Under the pieces are notes generated by a model. It saw only the letters and a list, made by a program, of their open reading frames with translations. It was not told where the DNA came from and made no database searches. Source: an uncultured Faecalibacterium sp. (GTDB lineage Bacteria; Bacillota; Clostridia; Oscillospirales; Acutalibacteraceae). Taken from it: a stretch of 64,000 nt of DNA. The stretch is taken from the NCBI GenBank assembly GCA_964480405.1, contig CAYZOU010000005.1, positions 39,117 through 103,116 of the forward strand. The letters are read 5' to 3'. Positions 3,111 through 63,397 of this stretch are shown in pieces. A program made the position numbers and the translations under genes. Within the stretch, counting starts at the first letter, position 1. Every line of letters starts with the position of its first letter.

Positions 3111-3677
3111 CTACGCCTGCTTATCCGGTCCGAGGTTGCCCTCTCTCCAATGCTTCCTGCAAAGCGAGGTATACTTTTCATTAGCGCCAAGCACTACCTG
3201 TTCGCCCTGCTTGATTATGCCGTTTTCATCGAATCTTGCGTTCCATATAGCCTTTTTTCCGCACCAGCAGATCGTTTTAACTTCTTCGATGGTATCCGCC
3301 CACGCCAAAAGCCATTGACTGCCCGGAAACAAATCACCCTTGAAGTCAGCCCGAAGTCCGTAGCAGACTACGGGTACATTAAGATCGTCGACGATATGGA
3401 CAAGAGTTTCAACTTCCTCTTTCGTTAAAAACTGCGCCTCATCGACGATAAGGCAGTCGGACTTTTTCACCTGCTCCAAATCAAGCTCATGAAAAAGCAC
3501 ACATTCACTCTCAAGTCCGCAACGTGAATATATTCTGTGAGTTCCGTTTCTCGTGTCAACGGCGGGCTTTGCGATTATGACGTGCTGTCCTCTTTCTTCG
3601 TAGTTATACTTGACCATGAGCGCATTGGCGGTTTTGCTCGACCCCATTGCGCCGTATCTGAAATATAGCTTTGCCAT
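3111..3677 (-). CDS. tdk: Thymidine kinase
   Basis: P-loop GAMGSSKT is present, with a C-terminal zinc-ribbon pattern (CWCGKK...SLCRKHW). Length is typical and the RBS is GGGGGGAG. Confidence 0.93.
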   Translation of the reverse strand: MAKLYFRYGAMGSSKTANALMVKYNYEERGQHVIIAKPAVDTRNGTHRIYSRCGLESECVLFHELDLEQVKKSDCLIVDEAQFLTKEEVETLVHIVDDLNVPVVCYGLRADFKGDLFPGSQWLLAWADTIEEVKTICWCGKKAIWNARFDENGIIKQGEQVVLGANEKYTSLCRKHWREGNLGPDKQA

Positions 3678-3691
3678 GGCTCCCCCCTAAA

Positions 3692-4234
3692 TTAGTCGTC
3701 CTGATTAAAGGTCTCTTTATAAAGCACCTCTTTGGTGTCTGTGTCTCTGATAATGACCGTGCAATGCTGATCCTTGCGGTCATTTTGGGTATAGCTTTGA
3801 TAGACAAGACAGCTTTGACCGACAAGACTCACCATCAGCGGACTTGTCGAATCCTTTTCATAGTCCTCTCTGACTACGTCTATTTTCATTTCGCTGAAGT
3901 CTTTATTTCTCTCGATATCTTTTATGTACGGATAGTCTGTATCTGAATTCATAAGTCCGTATACGTTTTCAATAACAGCCACGCCGATCTTATACATCAA
4001 GATATCATAGTCGTTATCTTCTATTTCGACTGATATCAGTCCGTTCTTCTTGTCGTATTCGGCGCTTTTAAATCCGTTCTTTTCAGCGTAGCCGTCGAGA
4101 TCCTCAAGCTCCGCTTCGGACAGACTTGAAGCCGAGATATCAATTCTCACCTTTCCGTCTTTCTTGCCGCAACCGAGCATAAGACAACTGAGCATAACCG
4201 TAAGAGCCATAATTACCGCCAATGATTTTTTCAT
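3692..4234 (-). CDS. Lipoprotein, function unknown
   Basis: Signal peptide plus lipobox (MKKSLAVIMALTVMLSCLMLGC). I prefer the start at 4234, with GGAGGG 6 nt upstream. The longer ORF-track N-terminus is encoded by the adjacent tandem repeat. Confidence 0.7.
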   Translation of the reverse strand: MKKSLAVIMALTVMLSCLMLGCGKKDGKVRIDISASSLSEAELEDLDGYAEKNGFKSAEYDKKNGLISVEIEDNDYDILMYKIGVAVIENVYGLMNSDTDYPYIKDIERNKDFSEMKIDVVREDYEKDSTSPLMVSLVGQSCLVYQSYTQNDRKDQHCTVIIRDTDTKEVLYKETFNQDD

Positions 4235-4250
4235 ATTCATCCCTCCGAAA

Positions 4251-4815
4251 TGTTCTCCGAAACACACCAAATCTATGATTTAGGCTGAGTTTCGTGAGGT
4301 TATTATTACACAAATTCCGGCGTATGCCATAAAATAGCGGCGTTAAGCCGCTTTACCTTAGCGAATTTGTGTAACAATGTTCTCCGAAACACACCAAATC
4401 TATGATTTGGGCTGAGTTTCGTGAGGTTATTATTACACAAATTCCGGCGTATGCCATAAAATAGCGGCGTTAAGCCGCTTTACCTTAGCGAATTTGTGTA
4501 ACAATGTTCTCCGAAACACACCAAATCTATGATTTGGGCTGAGTTTCGTGAGGTTATTATTACACAAATTCCGGCGTATGCCATAAAATAGCGGCGTTAA
4601 GCCGCTTTACCTCAGCGAATTTGTGTAACAATGTTCTCCGAAAGTCCCCAAATCTTCGATTTGGTTGGACTTTCGTGAGGTTATTATTACGCAAATTCCG
4701 GCGTATGCCATAAAATAGCGGCGTTAAGCCGCTTTACCTCAGCGAATTTGTGTAACAATGTTCTCCGAAAGTCCCCAAATCTTCGATTTGGTTGGACTTT
4801 CGTGAGGTTATTATA
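4251..4815 (-). repeat. Tandem array, about 4.4 copies of a 127-bp structured unit (same family as 61591-61971, opposite strand)
   Basis: Unit starts (tgttctccgaaa) fall at 4251, 4378, 4505, 4632 and 4759, an exact 127-bp period. Each unit holds a long bulged hairpin plus a 12-bp outer stem (ttacacaaattc/gaatttgtgtaa) enclosing agcggc-gttaa-gccgct. Confidence 0.95.
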
Positions 4816-5033
4816 CCACACATATCAAGAAAAAGCCATAACTTCAGATAATACTTTTATGATAGTTTATCAGACAAATTCGTTTATGCTGTTAAGCAAC
4901 TGTTAAAGTTTAGCGATATATGAAGCCGTGCCCCAAAAGGAATACGGCGGTCGGTGGGTGTTCTGTATTATATGTGTCCGTATAGTTACTCACAGTGCTT
5001 TGTTTTGGCTTTGACTTGATTGTTGCAGCGAGC

Positions 5034-5063: not shown

Positions 5064-5148
5064 TGGTGCATCTGACAGGAATCGAACCTGCACGTCTTTC
5101 GACAATGGATCCTAAATCCATCGTGTCTACCAATTCCACCACAGATGC
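5064..5148 (-). tRNA. tRNA-Leu (anticodon TAG), encoded CCA
   Basis: The reverse complement folds by hand into a cloverleaf. Acceptor stem is GCATCTG/CAGATGC and the anticodon stem ATGGA/TCCAT carries loop TTTAGGA. There is a long variable arm TGTCGAAAGACGT, T-loop TTCGATT and a 3' ACCA. Confidence 0.93.
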
Positions 5149-5406: not shown

Positions 5407-6687
5407 TTATTTTCCGAAGATGTTATTCTTGCCCTTGAATATGGGAAGTATCTCTCCGTCGTCTCCGTCGTTGTCATCGAAAACCGATGCGCCCTTTGAC
5501 GGTGTGTGAACAGACTCGGTTGCAGACGGAACAGCAGTTTCCTGCTTTGCTTCGCCCGACTGTGACTGTAAGTTCTTGTCAAAGGCTTCTCTGAACGCAC
5601 GGAGAATGTCACTGTTGACTGCGCCCGTGGGAGTGGTCGGAGTGAACGGTGAAGGTGTTGTCGGTGTTGTTCCGATGAAGTTCTGTGAGGGATTGGGAAT
5701 CTGATTAGACGGCGTGCTCTGCAAAAGGTTCTCGTTTCTGAAGCCTGTTGCAATAACGGTTATGAGCATCTCGTCGCCCATATCCTCGTCGAATACCGAA
5801 CCGAAGATGATGTTTGCATCGGGATGAGTGTTCTGTGAAATGAGGTCGCCTGCCTCCTCGATTTTATCAAGAGGCATGTCCGAAGAACAGGTGACGTTGA
5901 TAATAACGCCGCTTGCGCCCTCGATCGTTGTTTCAAGAAGCGGACTTGTGATAGCTTTCTCTGTTGCTTCTGCCGCACAGTCATTACCCTTGCCACGACC
6001 GATACCCATATGAGCTCTGCCTGCGTCTTTCATAACGCTCTTGATATCCGCAAAGTCAAGGTTGATATAACCGGGAACTTTGATAGTGTCGGAAATACTC
6101 TTAACGCCCTGCCAAAGAACCTCGTTCGCCTTGCCGAAAGCATCACGAATACCGAGACTCTTGTCACCTAAAAGGCGAAGTCTCTCGTTCGGAATGACAA
6201 TAAGACTGTCAACATTCTTTTCAAGCTCTTTTATACCTTCCTCAGCCTGCACCATACGCTTTCTGCCCTCAAATCTGAACGGCTTTGTTACGATACCGAC
6301 TGTGAGTATGCCCATTTCTTTTGCTATTTCGGCAACTATCGGAGCTGCGCCCGTGCCTGTGCCGCCGCCCATACCTGCGGTGATGAATACCATATCCGTG
6401 TTTTTGAGCACTTCGGAAATAGCTTCTCTGCTTTCCTCGGCAGCCTTGCGACCGACTGTCGGATCGCCGCCTGCACCCATGCAGCCCGTTGTTTTCTCAC
6501 CTATCTGAATTTTATGTGTTGCCTTGGAATTTTCAAGAATCTGACGGTCGGTATTGATCGAAATAAACTCGACGCCGACTATACCGGCGTTAACCATGCT
6601 GTTAACGGCATTTCCGCCGCCACCGCCGACACCGATTACCTTTATCTGGTTATATGCGATATATTCATTATCAATAGCGAAACCCAT
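5407..6687 (-). CDS. ftsZ: Cell division protein FtsZ
   Basis: [11 protein letters not shown] and the tubulin signature [13 protein letters not shown] are present. The C-terminal linker is disordered and P/T-rich. Confidence 0.97.
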
Positions 6688-23558: not shown

Positions 23559-23660
23559 CCCCGCCTGCGAAGCAGGCGGACGGCGTGAGCTTGTGTACTC
23601 CCGAGCGCGCGACGAAGGCGCTGTGCGAGCGGAGTGCCAAGGTCACGCCGCAGGAACTGA
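23559..23660 (+). repeat. GC-rich structured intergenic repeat, family A (copy with full nested stems)
   Basis: ccccgcctgc-gaa-gcaggcgg hairpin, then nested stems cggcgtga/tcacgccg, actcc/ggagt and agcgc/gcgct. Related copies are listed below. Confidence 0.85.
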
Positions 23661-29119: not shown

Positions 29120-29232
29120 AAAACAGAGTAGGTTTGAGTGCGTTAAGTTCCGTCTGAACGGGGAGTTGTCAGATGGCCGAAAACGGTTCAGCATAGTTGA
29201 GCCCTTGCGATACTCTTTCCGCATCCCGCTGT
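29120..29232 (+). promoter_or_regulatory. THF (tetrahydrofolate) riboswitch aptamer
   Basis: Conserved THF-motif blocks are recognisable: cAGAGUAGg...GUGCGUUAAGU...GAACGGGGAGUUG...CGAUACUCU...CCGCAUCCCGCUG. It lies upstream of a FolT-type ECF S-component gene. Confidence 0.85.
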
Positions 29233-29259
29233 AAACAAGAAAGATCGGACAAAATATCC

Positions 29260-29830: not shown

Positions 29831-29944
29831 ACCCGCCCGCGAAGCGGGCGGGGCGGGTGCGAAGCACCCCACGAGCACGAAGTGCGAGTGGGGTGACTGA
29901 GCAGCCGCCGTTGCGGGCGCGGTAGCGAAGCGAGTGCCCGCAGG
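29831..29944 (+). repeat. Family A-related GC-rich repeat (series of hairpins with GAA/GAAG loops)
   Basis: cccgcccgc-gaa-gcgggcggg, ggtgc-gaa-gcacc, ccccac...gtgggg and gcgggc...gcccgc. The first hairpin differs from other copies by compensated changes. Confidence 0.8.
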
Positions 29945-35023: not shown

Positions 35024-35120
35024 CCCCGCCTGCGAAGCAGGCGGACGGCGGCTGCATGTGTACCTGCGAGCGCAAGCGAAGCGCCGTGCGAGTAGGTGCC
35101 GGGCAGGCGCCGCAGGAGCT
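35024..35120 (+). repeat. Family A repeat copy
   Basis: ccccgcctgcgaagcaggcggacggcggctgc...tacctgcgagcg...gagtaggtgcc...gcaggcgccgcaggagc. The middle stem (acct/aggt) covaries with actcc/ggagt in other copies. Confidence 0.85.
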
Positions 35121-38486: not shown

Positions 38487-38552
38487 CCCGCCTGCGAAGC
38501 AGGCGGACGGTGAATTATACGCCACCGCACTCGACGAAGTCGGGTGCGGTGG
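38487..38552 (+). repeat. Family A repeat (leading hairpin plus a second hairpin), probably acting as the operon terminator
   Basis: cccgcctgc-gaa-gcaggcgg, then ccaccgcac...gtgcggtgg. Confidence 0.7.
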
Positions 38553-61059: not shown

Positions 61060-61407
61060 GCTTACCGAACACCGATTTGTTTCGGATAAATGCCGCAACT
61101 GCGGTGTAAAGACCGGAAGCAAGGCTGACACCTTGAGGTGCGGTAGCGAGCGAAGCGAGCGTAACGGCGGCTGTTCGTGTACTCCGTAGCGCTCGCCGCA
61201 GGCGAAGGGCGGAGTGAGTGCCGAACAGCCGCCCCGCTGATTTCGCTTGGGTTTTCCGAGAAACTCCGAAGGCTAAAGAAAGTCCGATTGCGAAAGTGCG
61301 TTGAGCTGACTTTTTAGAATGTGGCTGACCCTTGCGAGTGGATTTAAGCCGCAAAGTGCCGAAAATATGCCATTTTAGGCGACTTCGGATATGACTTCAA
61401 TGCTTAT
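61060..61407. repeat. Composite repeat: shared block, inverted family A-prime, then family B
   Basis: gatttgtttcggataaatgccgcaac matches 44672-44697. 61136-61320 is the reverse complement of 44873-45056. 61339-61407 is a family B copy. Confidence 0.85.
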
Positions 61408-61451
61408 GCGCCGAGTGTTTTCGAAATTGCAAGTCGCCTGCCTCCCGAAAA

Positions 61452-61536
61452 GCTCCTGCGCCGCCATCTCGGCACTCCACTCGCCTGCGGCTCGGGAGTG
61501 CACGAGCTGTCGCCGTCCGCCTGCTTCGCAGGCGGG
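61452..61536 (-). repeat. Family A repeat copy (reverse orientation)
   Basis: The reverse complement reads cccgcctgcgaagcaggcggacggcg...gtgcactcccgagc...gtggagtgccgag...gcgcaggagc. Confidence 0.85.
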
Positions 61537-61590
61537 TTTACGACAATCCGACGAAAATCTGTAAAACTATAGCATTTTTCTGATGTATAT

Positions 61591-61971
61591 GTTATAATAA
61601 CCTCACGAAACACAGCCCAAATCATAGATTTGGTGTGTTTCGGAGAACATTGTTACATAAATTCGCTGAGGTAATGCGGCTAAAGCCGCTATTTTATGGC
61701 ATTCGCCGGAATTTATGTTATAATAACCTCACGAAAGTCCAACCAAATCGAAGATTTGGGGACTTTCGGAGAACATTGTTACACAAACTCACAGAGGTAA
61801 AGTGGCGTAAACGCCACATTTAATGGCATACGCCGAGAGTTTGTGTTATAATAACCTCACGAAACACAGCCCAAATCATAGATTTGGTGTGTTTCGGAAA
61901 ACATTGTTACATAAATTCGCTGAGGTAAAGCGGCTAAAGCCGCTATTTTATGGCATTCGCCGGAATTTATG
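61591..61971 (+). repeat. Tandem array of 3 copies of the ~127-bp structured unit. Each carries an extended -10 (TGTTATAAT), a long hairpin and a terminator-like hairpin.
   Basis: Unit starts (gttataataacctcacgaaa) are at 61591, 61717 and 61845. Units 1 and 3 are nearly identical. Unit 2 differs at paired positions in all three stems. Confidence 0.95.
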
Positions 61972-62038
61972 TAAGAATACTCAAGCGGTGATCAGCTCAC
62001 CTAAACAAAAAATTGTATATCTTTTACGGAGGCAAATC

Positions 62039-63397
62039 ATGAATGTTATAATTGTCGGTTGCGGCAAAGTCGGATCTACACTTGCCGACCGACTCGTCAG
62101 TGAAGGACACGATGTCAGCGTTGTTGACGTTGACTCCGAGGCAGTTGATAAAGTAACGAGCAGACTTGATGTTCTCGGTGTTGTCGGCAGTGGCTCTATT
62201 CACCAAGTGCAAGTCGATGCAGGCGTTAAAAATGCCGACCTATTCATAGCCGTAACTCCGAGCGATGAATTAAATCTGCTCTGCTGTCTGATGGCTAAAA
62301 GATCGGCTTCATGTAGCACTATAGCACGAGTCAGAAATCCCGACTATCTCTCTGAACGGGCTTTCATCAAGGAACGTCTCGGACTTTCAAGCATCATCAA
62401 TCCGGAATTTGAAGCGGCAGCCGAGATAAGCAGGCTTTTCCGCATACCCTCGGCAATAGAGGTCGACACCTTCGCCGACGGTAAGGTCGAGCTTTTGAAA
62501 GCGGCTTTGACCGAGAACTCACCTATCGTCGGAAAATCAATAATGAACGCTTTAGGCAAGATCAGCGGTAAGGTTCTTATTTGCGCAGTCGAAAGAAACG
62601 GAGACGTTGTTATCCCGAGCGGATCGTTTATACTTAAAGCCGGAGACCAGATCTCATTCCTTACCTCAAGAAGTGAAAGAGAAACCGTGTTCAAAAAGAT
62701 CGGACTTGAAAGCGGCAAGATCAAAAGAGTTGTTATCGTCGGCGGCGGAAAGATATCTTATTATCTTGTCAGAATGCTCGCCGAGGAAGGCTTCAAGGTC
62801 AAGGTCATAGAAAGAGACAAAGAAAGATGTGAGGTACTCTCCGAGCTTCTGCCGTCATCGGTCACCATCATAAACGGCGACGGAACTGACCAACAGCTTT
62901 TGTATGAGGAGGACATTGACAGCGCCGACGGCTTCGCTTCGCTGACAGATGTTGACGAGGAAAACATCATGCTTTCAATGTTCATGACGAAAAATTCCAA
63001 GGCGAAGGTCGTCACAAAAATAAACAGACAGAATTTTTCCGAGCTTATTGAAAATCTTAATATAGGCTCGGTCATATATCCGAAATTCATAACAGCCGAA
63101 ACCATAGTCAGCTATGCGAGAGCGCTGAAGAACTCTCAGGGCAGTAATGTTCAGACACTTTATAACATCGTCGATGACAAGGTCGAAGCACTCGAATTCA
63201 GAGCTAAAAGCGAATCCGAGGTGACGGGTGTTCATCTGAGCGATCTCGAGCTTAAAGACAATCTTCTTATCTGTTGCATAAGCAGAAACGGCAAGACTGT
63301 TATTCCGAACGGTCTGACGACTATCGAAGTCGGAGACACGGTCGTAGTCGTTACAACACAGAAAGGTCTCAACGACCTTAGCGACATTTTGAAGTGA
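62039..63397 (+). CDS. trkA: Trk/Ktr potassium uptake system NAD-binding subunit TrkA
   Basis: Two RCK_N/RCK_C pairs (IIVGCGKVGSTLA; VVIVGGGKISYYL). Start at ATG 62039 with a GGAGG RBS. The ORF-track N-terminal extension reads through the tandem repeats. Confidence 0.92.
   Translation: MNVIIVGCGKVGSTLADRLVSEGHDVSVVDVDSEAVDKVTSRLDVLGVVGSGSIHQVQVDAGVKNADLFIAVTPSDELNLLCCLMAKRSASCSTIARVRNPDYLSERAFIKERLGLSSIINPEFEAAAEISRLFRIPSAIEVDTFADGKVELLKAALTENSPIVGKSIMNALGKISGKVLICAVERNGDVVIPSGSFILKAGDQISFLTSRSERETVFKKIGLESGKIKRVVIVGGGKISYYLVRMLAEEGFKVKVIERDKERCEVLSELLPSSVTIINGDGTDQQLLYEEDIDSADGFASLTDVDEENIMLSMFMTKNSKAKVVTKINRQNFSELIENLNIGSVIYPKFITAETIVSYARALKNSQGSNVQTLYNIVDDKVEALEFRAKSESEVTGVHLSDLELKDNLLICCISRNGKTVIPNGLTTIEVGDTVVVVTTQKGLNDLSDILK

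Follow-up and report, generated by a model that had tools for sequence, protein, structure and literature searches.

What is a tandem array of three hairpin-forming repeats doing between the promoter and the coding sequence of a trkA gene? The question is raised by a 64,000-nucleotide stretch of an uncultured Faecalibacterium sp. (contig CAYZOU010000005.1), hereafter the window, whose positions are used throughout. An earlier note, made from the letters alone, had described three trkA-oriented units at 61591-61971 and had offered three options for them: tandem small RNA (sRNA) genes of about 90 nt, a modular mobile element comparable to BOX elements, or a repeated promoter-leader. In our opinion, with a probability of roughly 60%, the array represents three tandem units of a dispersed non-coding, promoter-embedded repeat of gut Oscillospirales (Clostridia). 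[quoted passage not shown] The second and third options are both favoured, and judged to be one and the same, because the repeat is dispersed in at least 67 genomes, is fused to the -10 hexamer, is co-oriented with downstream genes that are unrelated to each other, varies in copy number and is lacking at the orthologous trkA promoter of a metagenomic contig (L118).

The three units were confirmed by Tandem Repeats Finder, which places the trkA-proximal array at 61588-61979 (period 126, 3.1 copies, 80% matches), as well as by conserved anchors and shuffles. Each unit is composed of a 51-nt hairpin (H) and a structured linker (L) of 75-77 nt ending in TRTGnTATAAT, and the first promoter is designated P0. 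The anchor AACCTCACGAAA is found at 61599, 61725 and 61853, on the + strand like all features of this array, and two conserved 19-20-mers occur 7-8 times each, where shuffled sequences give an expectation of 0.00-0.01. The long hairpin, in which CUC-A-CGAAAC... pairs with ...GUUUCG-GAG, folds as previously claimed, with dG of -22.7 and -24.6 kcal/mol and z about -6.5.

Reading the array from its 5′ side, P0 (61569..61598) is the putative ancestral trkA promoter, with a -35-like ATAGCA at 61569-61574, an 18-nt spacer and, by direct sequence reading, the extended -10 TATGTTATAAT at 61588-61598 (TATAAT 61593-61598); it is homologous to the array-free trkA promoter ...CTATGGAATTTTTTTCAGACATATGTTATAAT of L118. 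It is followed by H1 (61599..61649; covariance model 75.1 bits, E about 4e-18; dG -22.7 kcal/mol, z -6.55), with the middle stem CACA/UGUG, and by L1 (61650..61724), which contains a closing stem UUGUUACAUAAAUUC/GAAUUUAUGUUAUAA, a mini hairpin GGC/GCC, a terminator-like GC hairpin with T tract (GCGGC-TAAA-GCCGC, 61676-61689, plus TATTTTAT) and a promoter-like end made of ATGGCA (61696-61701) and a second TATGTTATAAT (61714-61724). H2 (61725..61775; 73.3 bits, dG -24.6 kcal/mol), with the middle stem GUCC/GGAC, is identical in sequence to two H copies of a sister array at the other end of the window. Its linker L2 (61776..61852) is a variant with the compensated closing stem ACACAAACUC/GAGUUUGUGU, the GC hairpin GUGGCG-UAAA-CGCCAC (61802-61817) with the weak tail AUUUAAU, and a promoter-like end of ATGGCA (61823-61828) and extended -10 TGTGTTATAAT (61842-61852). 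H3 (61853..61903; 68.4 bits) is like H1 with a G to A change in the GGAG foot (GGAAAACA), and L3 (61904..61978) carries a terminator-like GC hairpin at 61929-61944 plus ATTTTAT and terminates with a promoter copy that has decayed, TATGTAAGAAT (61968-61978; hexamer AAGAAT 61973-61978), whose degraded form TGTAAGAAT (61970-61978) had escaped the earlier note. The unique trkA leader ACTCAAGCGGTGA... (61979..62038) comes next, with a hairpin GGTGA-TCAGC-TCACC and the ribosome-binding site (RBS) GGAGG at 62028-62032; it is homologous to the L118 leader ACTTGAACGTGA...GGAGGGAAACATG and leads into trkA (62039..63397, 452 aa, two TrkA_N/TrkA_C pairs in Pfam), which is followed by trkH in the same-species contig L117.

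Two features that had been ascribed to every unit hold for part of them. The extended -10 with ATGGCA 17 nt upstream is exact for unit 2, in front of which the promoter scan detected ATGGCA-17-TATAAT with TG (61696-61724), whereas unit 1 has ATAGCA and an 18-nt spacer; the scan also reported ATGGCA-18-TATAAT at 61823-61852. Likewise, the terminator-like shape was flagged for units 1 and 3, yet not for unit 2 with its weaker T tail (ATTTAAT). The paired substitutions that set unit 2 apart from units 1 and 3 were verified by sequence comparison in all three stems, namely H, the GC hairpin and the 16-bp stem closing L.

To what extent is this repeat a peculiarity of trkA? A scan for the pattern AACCTCACGAAA-N26-40-TTTCGGARAACA, from which the promoter is absent, was run on one genome per species, and carriers were inspected as 8-kb pieces; all family-wide counts given here and below are among the matches listed by that scan. 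At least 116 loci in at least 67 species-level assemblies carry H. Nearly all carriers are metagenome-assembled genomes (MAGs) from gut or rumen labelled Oscillospiraceae, Acutalibacteraceae, Ruminococcaceae, “Eubacterium” or Clostridia; for two the label is Bacteroides or Bacteroidaceae, which we suspect to result from mis-binning. The 151 pattern matches reduce to 101 distinct hairpins (106 with the window copies added), and covariance model R1 recognises 160-166 H copies within the listed loci, while in the window it returns eight, all of them already known. Single hairpins dominate, with 79 of 118 arrays containing one H, 24 two, 10 three, 4 four and 1 five, and array periods cluster near 87, 100 and 126 nt. 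It is H, not the promoter, that constitutes the universal repeat, as seen in a subfamily with a period of about 87 nt and no internal promoter (CGGCGAAAT|AACC).

The core of H is a near-perfect 51-bp hairpin with an invariant outer foot, CCTC-A-CGAAA / TTTCG-GAG, four variable but compensated middle pairs, a 2-nt bulge and a conserved top, CNAAATC-AAA-GATTTNG. In the alignment 95% of the cells are paired, ten pairs show double substitutions and 209 cells are compensated, a level reached by 0/500 shuffles and approached by no slid register. The linkers, on the other hand, are genome-specific, each a chain of one, two or three small GC-rich hairpins inside an AU-rich closing stem, and near-identical within one array. 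A coding repeat was rejected on two grounds: not all of the periods (126, 127, ~100 and ~87 nt) are divisible by 3, and the linkers lack conservation. A CRISPR-like or ToxI-like array was rejected too, given linkers that are near-identical within an array instead of unique spacers, and unrelated downstream genes.

The repeat apparently has not been described before. At the gathering threshold of Rfam 15 the whole window contains no match to the repeat unit and only a tetrahydrofolate (THF) riboswitch and a tRNA; at E <= 10, region 61400-62100 gives chance sub-threshold matches, the best being Hrs13 (20.5 bits against a threshold of 52), which lies outside the units. This bears out the statement that the unit belongs to no described RNA family. 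Moreover, the repeat has no match in the phage and plasmid collections IMG/VR, INPHARED and PLSDB, and a literature search by sequence and by topic retrieved unrelated primer matches only.

The evidence that ties the family to promoters is found at its boundaries. Among 108 distinct first copies, the six bases 5′ of H are TATAAT, at 93-100% per position, and these are preceded by T (75%), R (A/G, 95%), T (84%), G (84%) and a variable base N. We take the resulting TRTGnTATAAT to be the Gram-positive extended -10 motif. A TTGACA match of at least 5/6 at a 16-18-nt spacer accompanies 26/108 first copies, versus 0-4/108 at control offsets and 2/58 internal copies, and these -35 boxes are encoded in the unique flank. 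Copies within one genome share similarity from about -11, and this ends exactly after the last TATAAT, 3′ of which an ordinary short leader, an RBS and a start codon are found. A 7-11-bp stretch of the -10 region recurs as a direct repeat on either side of the unit, always with the sequence TRTGnTATAAT; its variable base N is equal in the left and right promoter copies in 33/44 arrays versus 15.7 expected (p < 0.0005), and it covaries with position 6 of the post-H segment, which is itself complementary to the promoter copy. The unit thus behaves as H-L-P placed behind a resident promoter P0. In most subfamilies the linker closes with an extended -10, and most internal copies follow one.

The genes that follow have little in common other than their direction. 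The downstream gene (longest open reading frame, ORF, located 300-800 nt downstream) is co-oriented with H in 69/86 arrays. For the upstream gene, 58 co-oriented and 37 divergent cases were counted, and between H and the start codon lie anywhere from 16 to >300 nt. Seventy-seven downstream proteins fall into 99 Pfam families, none of which is matched by more than two proteins, and they include TsaE, SmpB, KARI, GGDEF proteins, transporters and many lipoproteins, with trkA, tsaE, smpB, nusB and ilvC among the housekeeping genes behind H. A regulon or a K+-transport riboswitch was rejected on these grounds, at most 2 of 77 downstream proteins belonging to any one Pfam family.

The sister array offers the same picture within the window. 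It occupies 4249..4816 on the - strand with five H (4759-4809, 4632-4682, 4505-4555, 4378-4428 and 4251-4301) and four linkers (Tandem Repeats Finder: 4249-4814, period 127, 4.5 copies, 97% matches). Its first H is preceded by TGTGGTATAAT and its last abuts the RBS GGAGGG and ATG of a lipoprotein-like ORF (3692-4234, -). The linkers of both window arrays are nearly identical, yet the downstream genes, trkA and the lipoprotein, are unrelated. As the earlier note had observed, each array stands directly 5′ of a gene that runs in the same direction, trkA on the + and the lipoprotein-like ORF on the - strand, so that the arrays are opposite in direction, each co-oriented with its own gene. The GC skew of the window is negative throughout and most genes are on the - strand; an orientation set by replication was rejected, as the two arrays run in opposite directions under this uniform skew.

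Orthologous loci differ in the units they carry. L118, with a TrkA 87% identical to that of the window, has the same promoter and zero H: its junction reads ...AAAACTATGGAATTTTTTTCAGACATATGTTATAAT|ACTTGAACGTGA...GGAGGGAAACATG (promoter side also given as ...CATATGTTATAAT|ACTTGAACGTGA...), where the window has ...AAAACTATAGCATTTTTCTGATGTATATGTTATAAT|[H-L]x3 ending TATGTAAGAAT|ACTCAAGCGGTGA...GGAGGCAAATCATG. None of the other 79 trkA loci compared (TrkA 49-54% identical) contains H. Elsewhere, unit number differs between orthologous loci, 2 versus 1 in L055/L066, 2 versus 3 in L059/L078 and 2 versus 1 in L002/L104, and it also differs within the pairs L022/L112 and L058/L097. In L002 and L104 the upstream flanks are 98% identical while the sequence 3′ of the H-L unit is wholly different, a rearrangement breakpoint located precisely at the element. 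A second empty site was sought for the sister array through FtsZ homologues and proved unusable, the same-species contig ending in the array and relatives with FtsZ 91-93% identical having another gene order. Same-species contigs break at both window arrays, as a repeat would lead one to expect, one 96 nt 5′ of trkA and another inside the first H of the sister array; an exact look-up of the TrkA protein returned a single contig, stopping 96 nt upstream of trkA. Short-read contigs that end in or beside H arrays include L117, L204 and many pattern loci, such as L012, L016, L029, L053 and L105.

In position, the repeat lies precisely where the -10 hexamer of an ordinary sigma-A promoter meets the transcribed leader; the flank provides the -35 box and the first -10, and the element regenerates a promoter at its far end. 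We infer promoter activity, a transcription start and an effect on trkA as follows. An ordinary trkA promoter would have gained three H-L units at its -10/+1 junction (or L118 would have lost them), giving P0-[H-L]x3-leader-trkA, and recombination or slippage between the promoter copies could add or remove units. trkA would then be transcribed from stacked promoters and receive their sum. Starts expected ~7 nt past each TATAAT would place the very stable H stem at the extreme 5′ end of the RNA, and transcripts of upstream units would read through structured, partly terminator-like linkers; the array could accordingly increase initiation and, at the same time, attenuate the message or make it more stable. 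Because the last -10 is decayed (AAGAAT), most trkA transcription probably reaches the gene by read-through from unit 3 and the units before it, and the GC hairpins may then act as partial attenuators. The sister array differs in this respect, with a last promoter-hairpin that feeds directly into the RBS. As for the route to new promoters, the candidates are single-strand transposition that depends on the hairpin and targets TATAAT, site-specific recombination in which the -10 serves as core, and microhomology-mediated template switching.

Several observations speak against a module that spreads in this way. No transposase or recombinase is linked to the family in the 8-kb carrier pieces, where no search for REP-associated tyrosine transposases (RAYT) was made, and no terminal inverted repeat (TIR) with a short random target duplication was seen at the repeat. 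The array-free promoter of L118 may owe its state to a precise deletion and need not be an empty target, and the window/L118 junction has an alternative register, with the 10-mer ATGTAAGAAT present in both. The last trkA promoter copy is AAGAAT, so that trkA may depend on read-through of a terminator-like hairpin, an odd arrangement for a simple expression booster. Not every subfamily has internal promoters, as the promoter-less ones show. Signs of host function are that H hardly changes in sequence from species to species, and that in L003/L092 the element is almost identical at the orthologous site although the adjacent coding sequence is only 76% identical; for this conservation, host function or concerted evolution fits at least as well as selfish spread.

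The latter points lead to the first alternative, that of a host-selected cis-acting 5′ leader RNA, in which H would be a protein- or ribosome-binding stem-loop recruited before many genes, repeats would add binding sites and spread would be secondary. Variants include a 5′ stabiliser with a Shine-Dalgarno (SD)-like GGAG, an RNase III or RNase Y site and a put-like antiterminator. The position of H, directly behind a promoter and co-oriented with a gene, agrees with this idea, and so do the conservation of the foot and apical stem sequences across at least 67 genomes and the persistence of the element at orthologous sites while neighbouring coding sequence diverges. Known 5′ stabilisers (the aprE and ermC leaders, STAB-SD) have a stem near the 5′ end; the start predicted here would similarly place the stem at +1/+2, in the order TATAAT, 6-7 nt, stem and GGAG at the 3′ foot. 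Furthermore, promoter-less subfamilies must co-transcribe several H copies.

The composition of the helix itself argues otherwise. Among 2090 pair cells of 110 distinct model-aligned hairpins, 1977 are Watson-Crick, 25 G·U, 29 A·C and 59 other, and H folds equally well on both strands. Selected RNA helices normally tolerate G·U far more than A·C, and a helix with no wobble excess (25 versus 29 in 2090) whose strands fold alike would be unusual for a selected RNA. With no excess of G·U over A·C, the compensatory changes are not proof of RNA function; the changes that had been put forward as evidence of RNA structure are real, but they leave a role of H as RNA possible but unproven. The symmetry of the pairs is also compatible with a palindrome at the DNA level, with arms homogenised through template switching or with a requirement for a perfect duplex. 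The linkers give a divided answer. Across 56 distinct linkers sense and antisense folding energies are alike (p = 0.58), whereas in linkers of the window type the sense strand folds 1-8 kcal/mol better and the extended GC hairpin contains two invariant G·U pairs. Where the post-H segment pairs with the next promoter copy, the first eight positions show 80 G·U and 1 A·C, in favour of RNA; yet this bias of the closing stem is confounded by the constraint on one arm to remain a promoter. Functionally unrelated downstream genes and an H-start codon distance of 16 to >300 nt likewise speak against this alternative. On balance, we regard a host-selected leader RNA as unlikely, and the spreading promoter/leader module as the better account.

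The option of tandem sRNA genes supposes that each unit is independent, with its own promoter, 5′ hairpin, single-stranded stretch and terminator, and produces a trans-acting RNA of ~95 nt. Tandem sRNA gene clusters such as Listeria LhrC1-4 and Pseudomonas PrrF1/2 are known, and the window repeats, at ~100-130 nt with promoter-like and terminator-like signals in the correct order, resemble them. The predicted 96-nt transcript of a unit would fold into a hairpin at each end, the 3′ one with a U tail, separated by 22 free nt, and the window-type linker recurs in L023, L032 and L050, with a covarying GC hairpin (GCGGC, GUGGC, GCGAC) and a retained ATTTTATGG tract. Nevertheless, a terminator-like hairpin with a T tract is confined to this one linker subtype (window, L023, L032 and L050) among the 56 distinct linker types, which mostly lack a T tract, and some subfamilies have no internal promoters. 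In the consensus fold, moreover, GAGGUAA is the pairing partner of the T tract, which also extends into the following -35 region. The supposed seed is the least conserved part, the sequence from H to the next promoter being genome-specific; with terminator and seed unconserved, the sRNA gene reading is disfavoured. In contrast to the LhrC and PrrF genes, whose terminator and single-stranded part find no conserved counterpart here, H copies are dispersed and gene-oriented: arrays follow the orientation of the downstream gene, an ordinary short leader and RBS follow immediately on the last promoter copy, and in the sister array the last H directly meets the RBS. With a terminator-like hairpin in the window linker subtype alone, no conserved seed and some promoter-less subfamilies, this option is weakly supported, and we hold it to be highly improbable.

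A further alternative is in fact a specific version of the mobility step of the promoter/leader module. The repeat could be a relic of a single-strand-DNA transposon, of the palindrome-associated (PATE) type of IS200/IS605 or similar to repetitive extragenic palindromes (REP) and their REPIN derivatives, where an HUH transposase binds H and insertion takes place 3′ of TATAAT, which open promoter complexes expose as single strands; an end of the same sequence would explain tandem insertion. A sharp left boundary 3′ of TATAAT in an element that itself ends in TATAAT is what such a transposon would leave, and the strictly same-strand arrangement in direct arrays with uniform periods, as well as the purely Watson-Crick pairing of H, with fixed bulges and no G·U excess, are in line with it. 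The post-H segment is complementary to both flanking -10 copies, like the pairing of guide and cleavage site. Of the PATE hallmarks, the fixed TATAAT at the left and at the 3′ end of the element is seen, but the right end carries no second hairpin resembling H, and linker hairpins vary between genomes. The phage and plasmid collections named above gave no match, and the window orientation follows genes, not replication direction. Lastly, the only IS200 copies seen, in L116 and L044, have end hairpins of their own with the module internal, and H as an IS200 end was rejected for that reason. A transposon relic of this kind seems to us distinctly improbable.

The IS200 copies deserve a description in their own right. 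Canonical IS200 elements occupy L116 1-860, with a frameshifted tnpA, and L044 at about 3580-3809; their end hairpins, CCCCCGG-TTCTA-CCGGGGG and CCACCAG-TTCAA-CTGGTGG, are unlike H, and the promoter+H module lies within the 5′ untranslated region of tnpA, which indicates that the module has also been recruited before a transposase gene. Another element, of ~190 nt with terminal inverted repeats GGAGGGAATRCG...CGTATTCCCTC, sits inside H at the bulge, in the same position at six loci of two genomes (L022, about 5700-5940, -; L018, L058, L067, L096 and L100); it is either a nested MITE targeting H or a composite unit being copied.

Perhaps, and this is a tentative idea that we consider doubtful, the family is a “promoter-homing” element. 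It would recognise TRTGnTATAAT, possibly as the single-stranded DNA of the open complex, insert between -10 and +1 by means of a hairpin-dependent recombinase, and rebuild the promoter at its distal end. If this is true, it would allow near-neutral spread through housekeeping promoters and tandem stacking, and it would provide the first defined mechanism and a model system for bacterial mobile promoters, whose reuse is documented statistically, its mechanism being unknown (PMC3575422).

How does the family relate to known systems? Putative mobile promoters (PMPs; Matus-Garcia, Nijveen & van Passel 2012, summarised in PMC3575422) are highly similar non-coding sequences upstream of non-homologous genes within one genome, found across genera and families and without an Rfam match. 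Both window arrays fall under the PMP definition, which asks for 80% identity or more across 50 nt or more in front of non-homologous genes of the same genome; PMPs are, however, an operational class, whereas the H family has a defined anatomy (-10 fusion, 51-nt hairpin, structured linker), tandem arrays and sharp boundaries. Correia elements (CREE) of Neisseria, MITEAba12, BrickBuilt and QMITE1 are short multi-copy non-coding intergenic elements with sigma-70-type promoters (PMC10969869), and BrickBuilt combines an internal tandem repeat with promoter activity (PMC4596501). The likeness of the H family to such promoter-bearing MITEs consists in a location mostly just upstream of genes, in promoters and in hairpins formed when transcribed. 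General traits of MITEs are present as well: the repeat is short, non-coding and dispersed (at least 116 loci in at least 67 assemblies), and it is polymorphic for presence (three units in the window versus zero in L118, with five further pairs that vary). As to terminal repeats the picture is mixed: H is enclosed by an imperfect inverted repeat (ATGGTATAAT...ATTGTATCAT) made up of the -10 region and the post-hairpin segment, and the direct repeat at the unit's two sides has the constant sequence TRTGnTATAAT. Unlike Correia elements, the family lacks 26-bp TIRs with TA duplication, its boundaries being TATAAT|AACCTC... and ...TATAAT|, and its sequence is unrelated. It also departs from promoter-bearing MITEs in being fused to a pre-existing -10 that it regenerates, in repeating whole units rather than an internal minisatellite, and in having hosts of another phylum.

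The pneumococcal BOX (boxA-boxB(n)-boxC) is modular, with one reiterated module, structured, co-transcribed and rarely inserted (PMC3049150). The H family is BOX-like as an interspersed Firmicute repeat with a reiterated module and extensive secondary structure, presumably also co-transcribed with its neighbours and seldom inserting, yet its arrays contain only H and L, with no boxA or boxC ends; they are bordered by unique flank at the first end and by a promoter copy at the second. BOX, in turn, has no built-in promoter or -10 link and is confined to a species group, while the H family spans many genera and is unrelated in sequence. REP sequences, their clusters known as bacterial interspersed mosaic elements (BIMEs) and REPINs, which RAYT transposases mobilise, share with it abundant extragenic hairpins, paired arm changes, clustering, assembly breaks and rearrangements. 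However, REPs are shorter, typically at gene 3′ ends and alternating in BIMEs, whereas H is at 5′ ends, in direct tandem, each copy behind a promoter. The family hence fails the defining features of Correia, BOX and REP (TIR/TA ends, boxA/boxC and 3′ location); it most resembles promoter-bearing MITEs (Correia, BrickBuilt) in function and BOX in modularity.

For the study of mobile promoters, the family is a clean, abundant and exactly bounded test case, present in dozens of uncultured and cultured gut Clostridia. If its promoters are active, transcription of many genes would be rewired, perhaps boosted or buffered, and promoter stacks of variable copy number would be a possible source of strain-level expression differences. 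The family also fragments short-read assemblies at promoters. In annotation, its arrays should not be called sRNA genes or riboswitches; covariance model R1 can mask or label them.

A few other elements of the window were noted. A second repeat family, a REP-like GC hairpin CCGCCTGC-TTC-GCAGGCGG, has 5 copies versus 0.02 expected, at 23561-23579, 29833-29851, 35026-35044 and 38488-38506 (-) and at 61517-61535 (+); its motif is also found 3′ of ftsZ in the relatives L198 and L204. Small hairpins inside H-family linkers have an xxxGC-TTCG-GCxxx design, as does this REP-like hairpin. A GC-rich cluster of small hairpins occupies 61391-61545, just 5′ of the trkA promoter, with a weak sub-threshold Hrs13 match, and its 19-mer CACTCGCCTGCGGCTCGGG recurs at L032 3516-3534 in the opposite orientation, also adjoining an H array. 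Near both arrays, 18-bp tandem duplications of two copies each lie at 61259-61296 and 3793-3828. The THF riboswitch is located at 29122-29233 (+, 66.5 bits), and the tRNA gene at 5067-5148 (-), between ftsZ (5407-6687, -) and the sister array. The window FtsZ shares 91% identity with the FtsZ of an “Acutalibacteraceae bacterium” MAG, and in relatives with FtsZ 91-93% identical the gene order past the tRNA is different.

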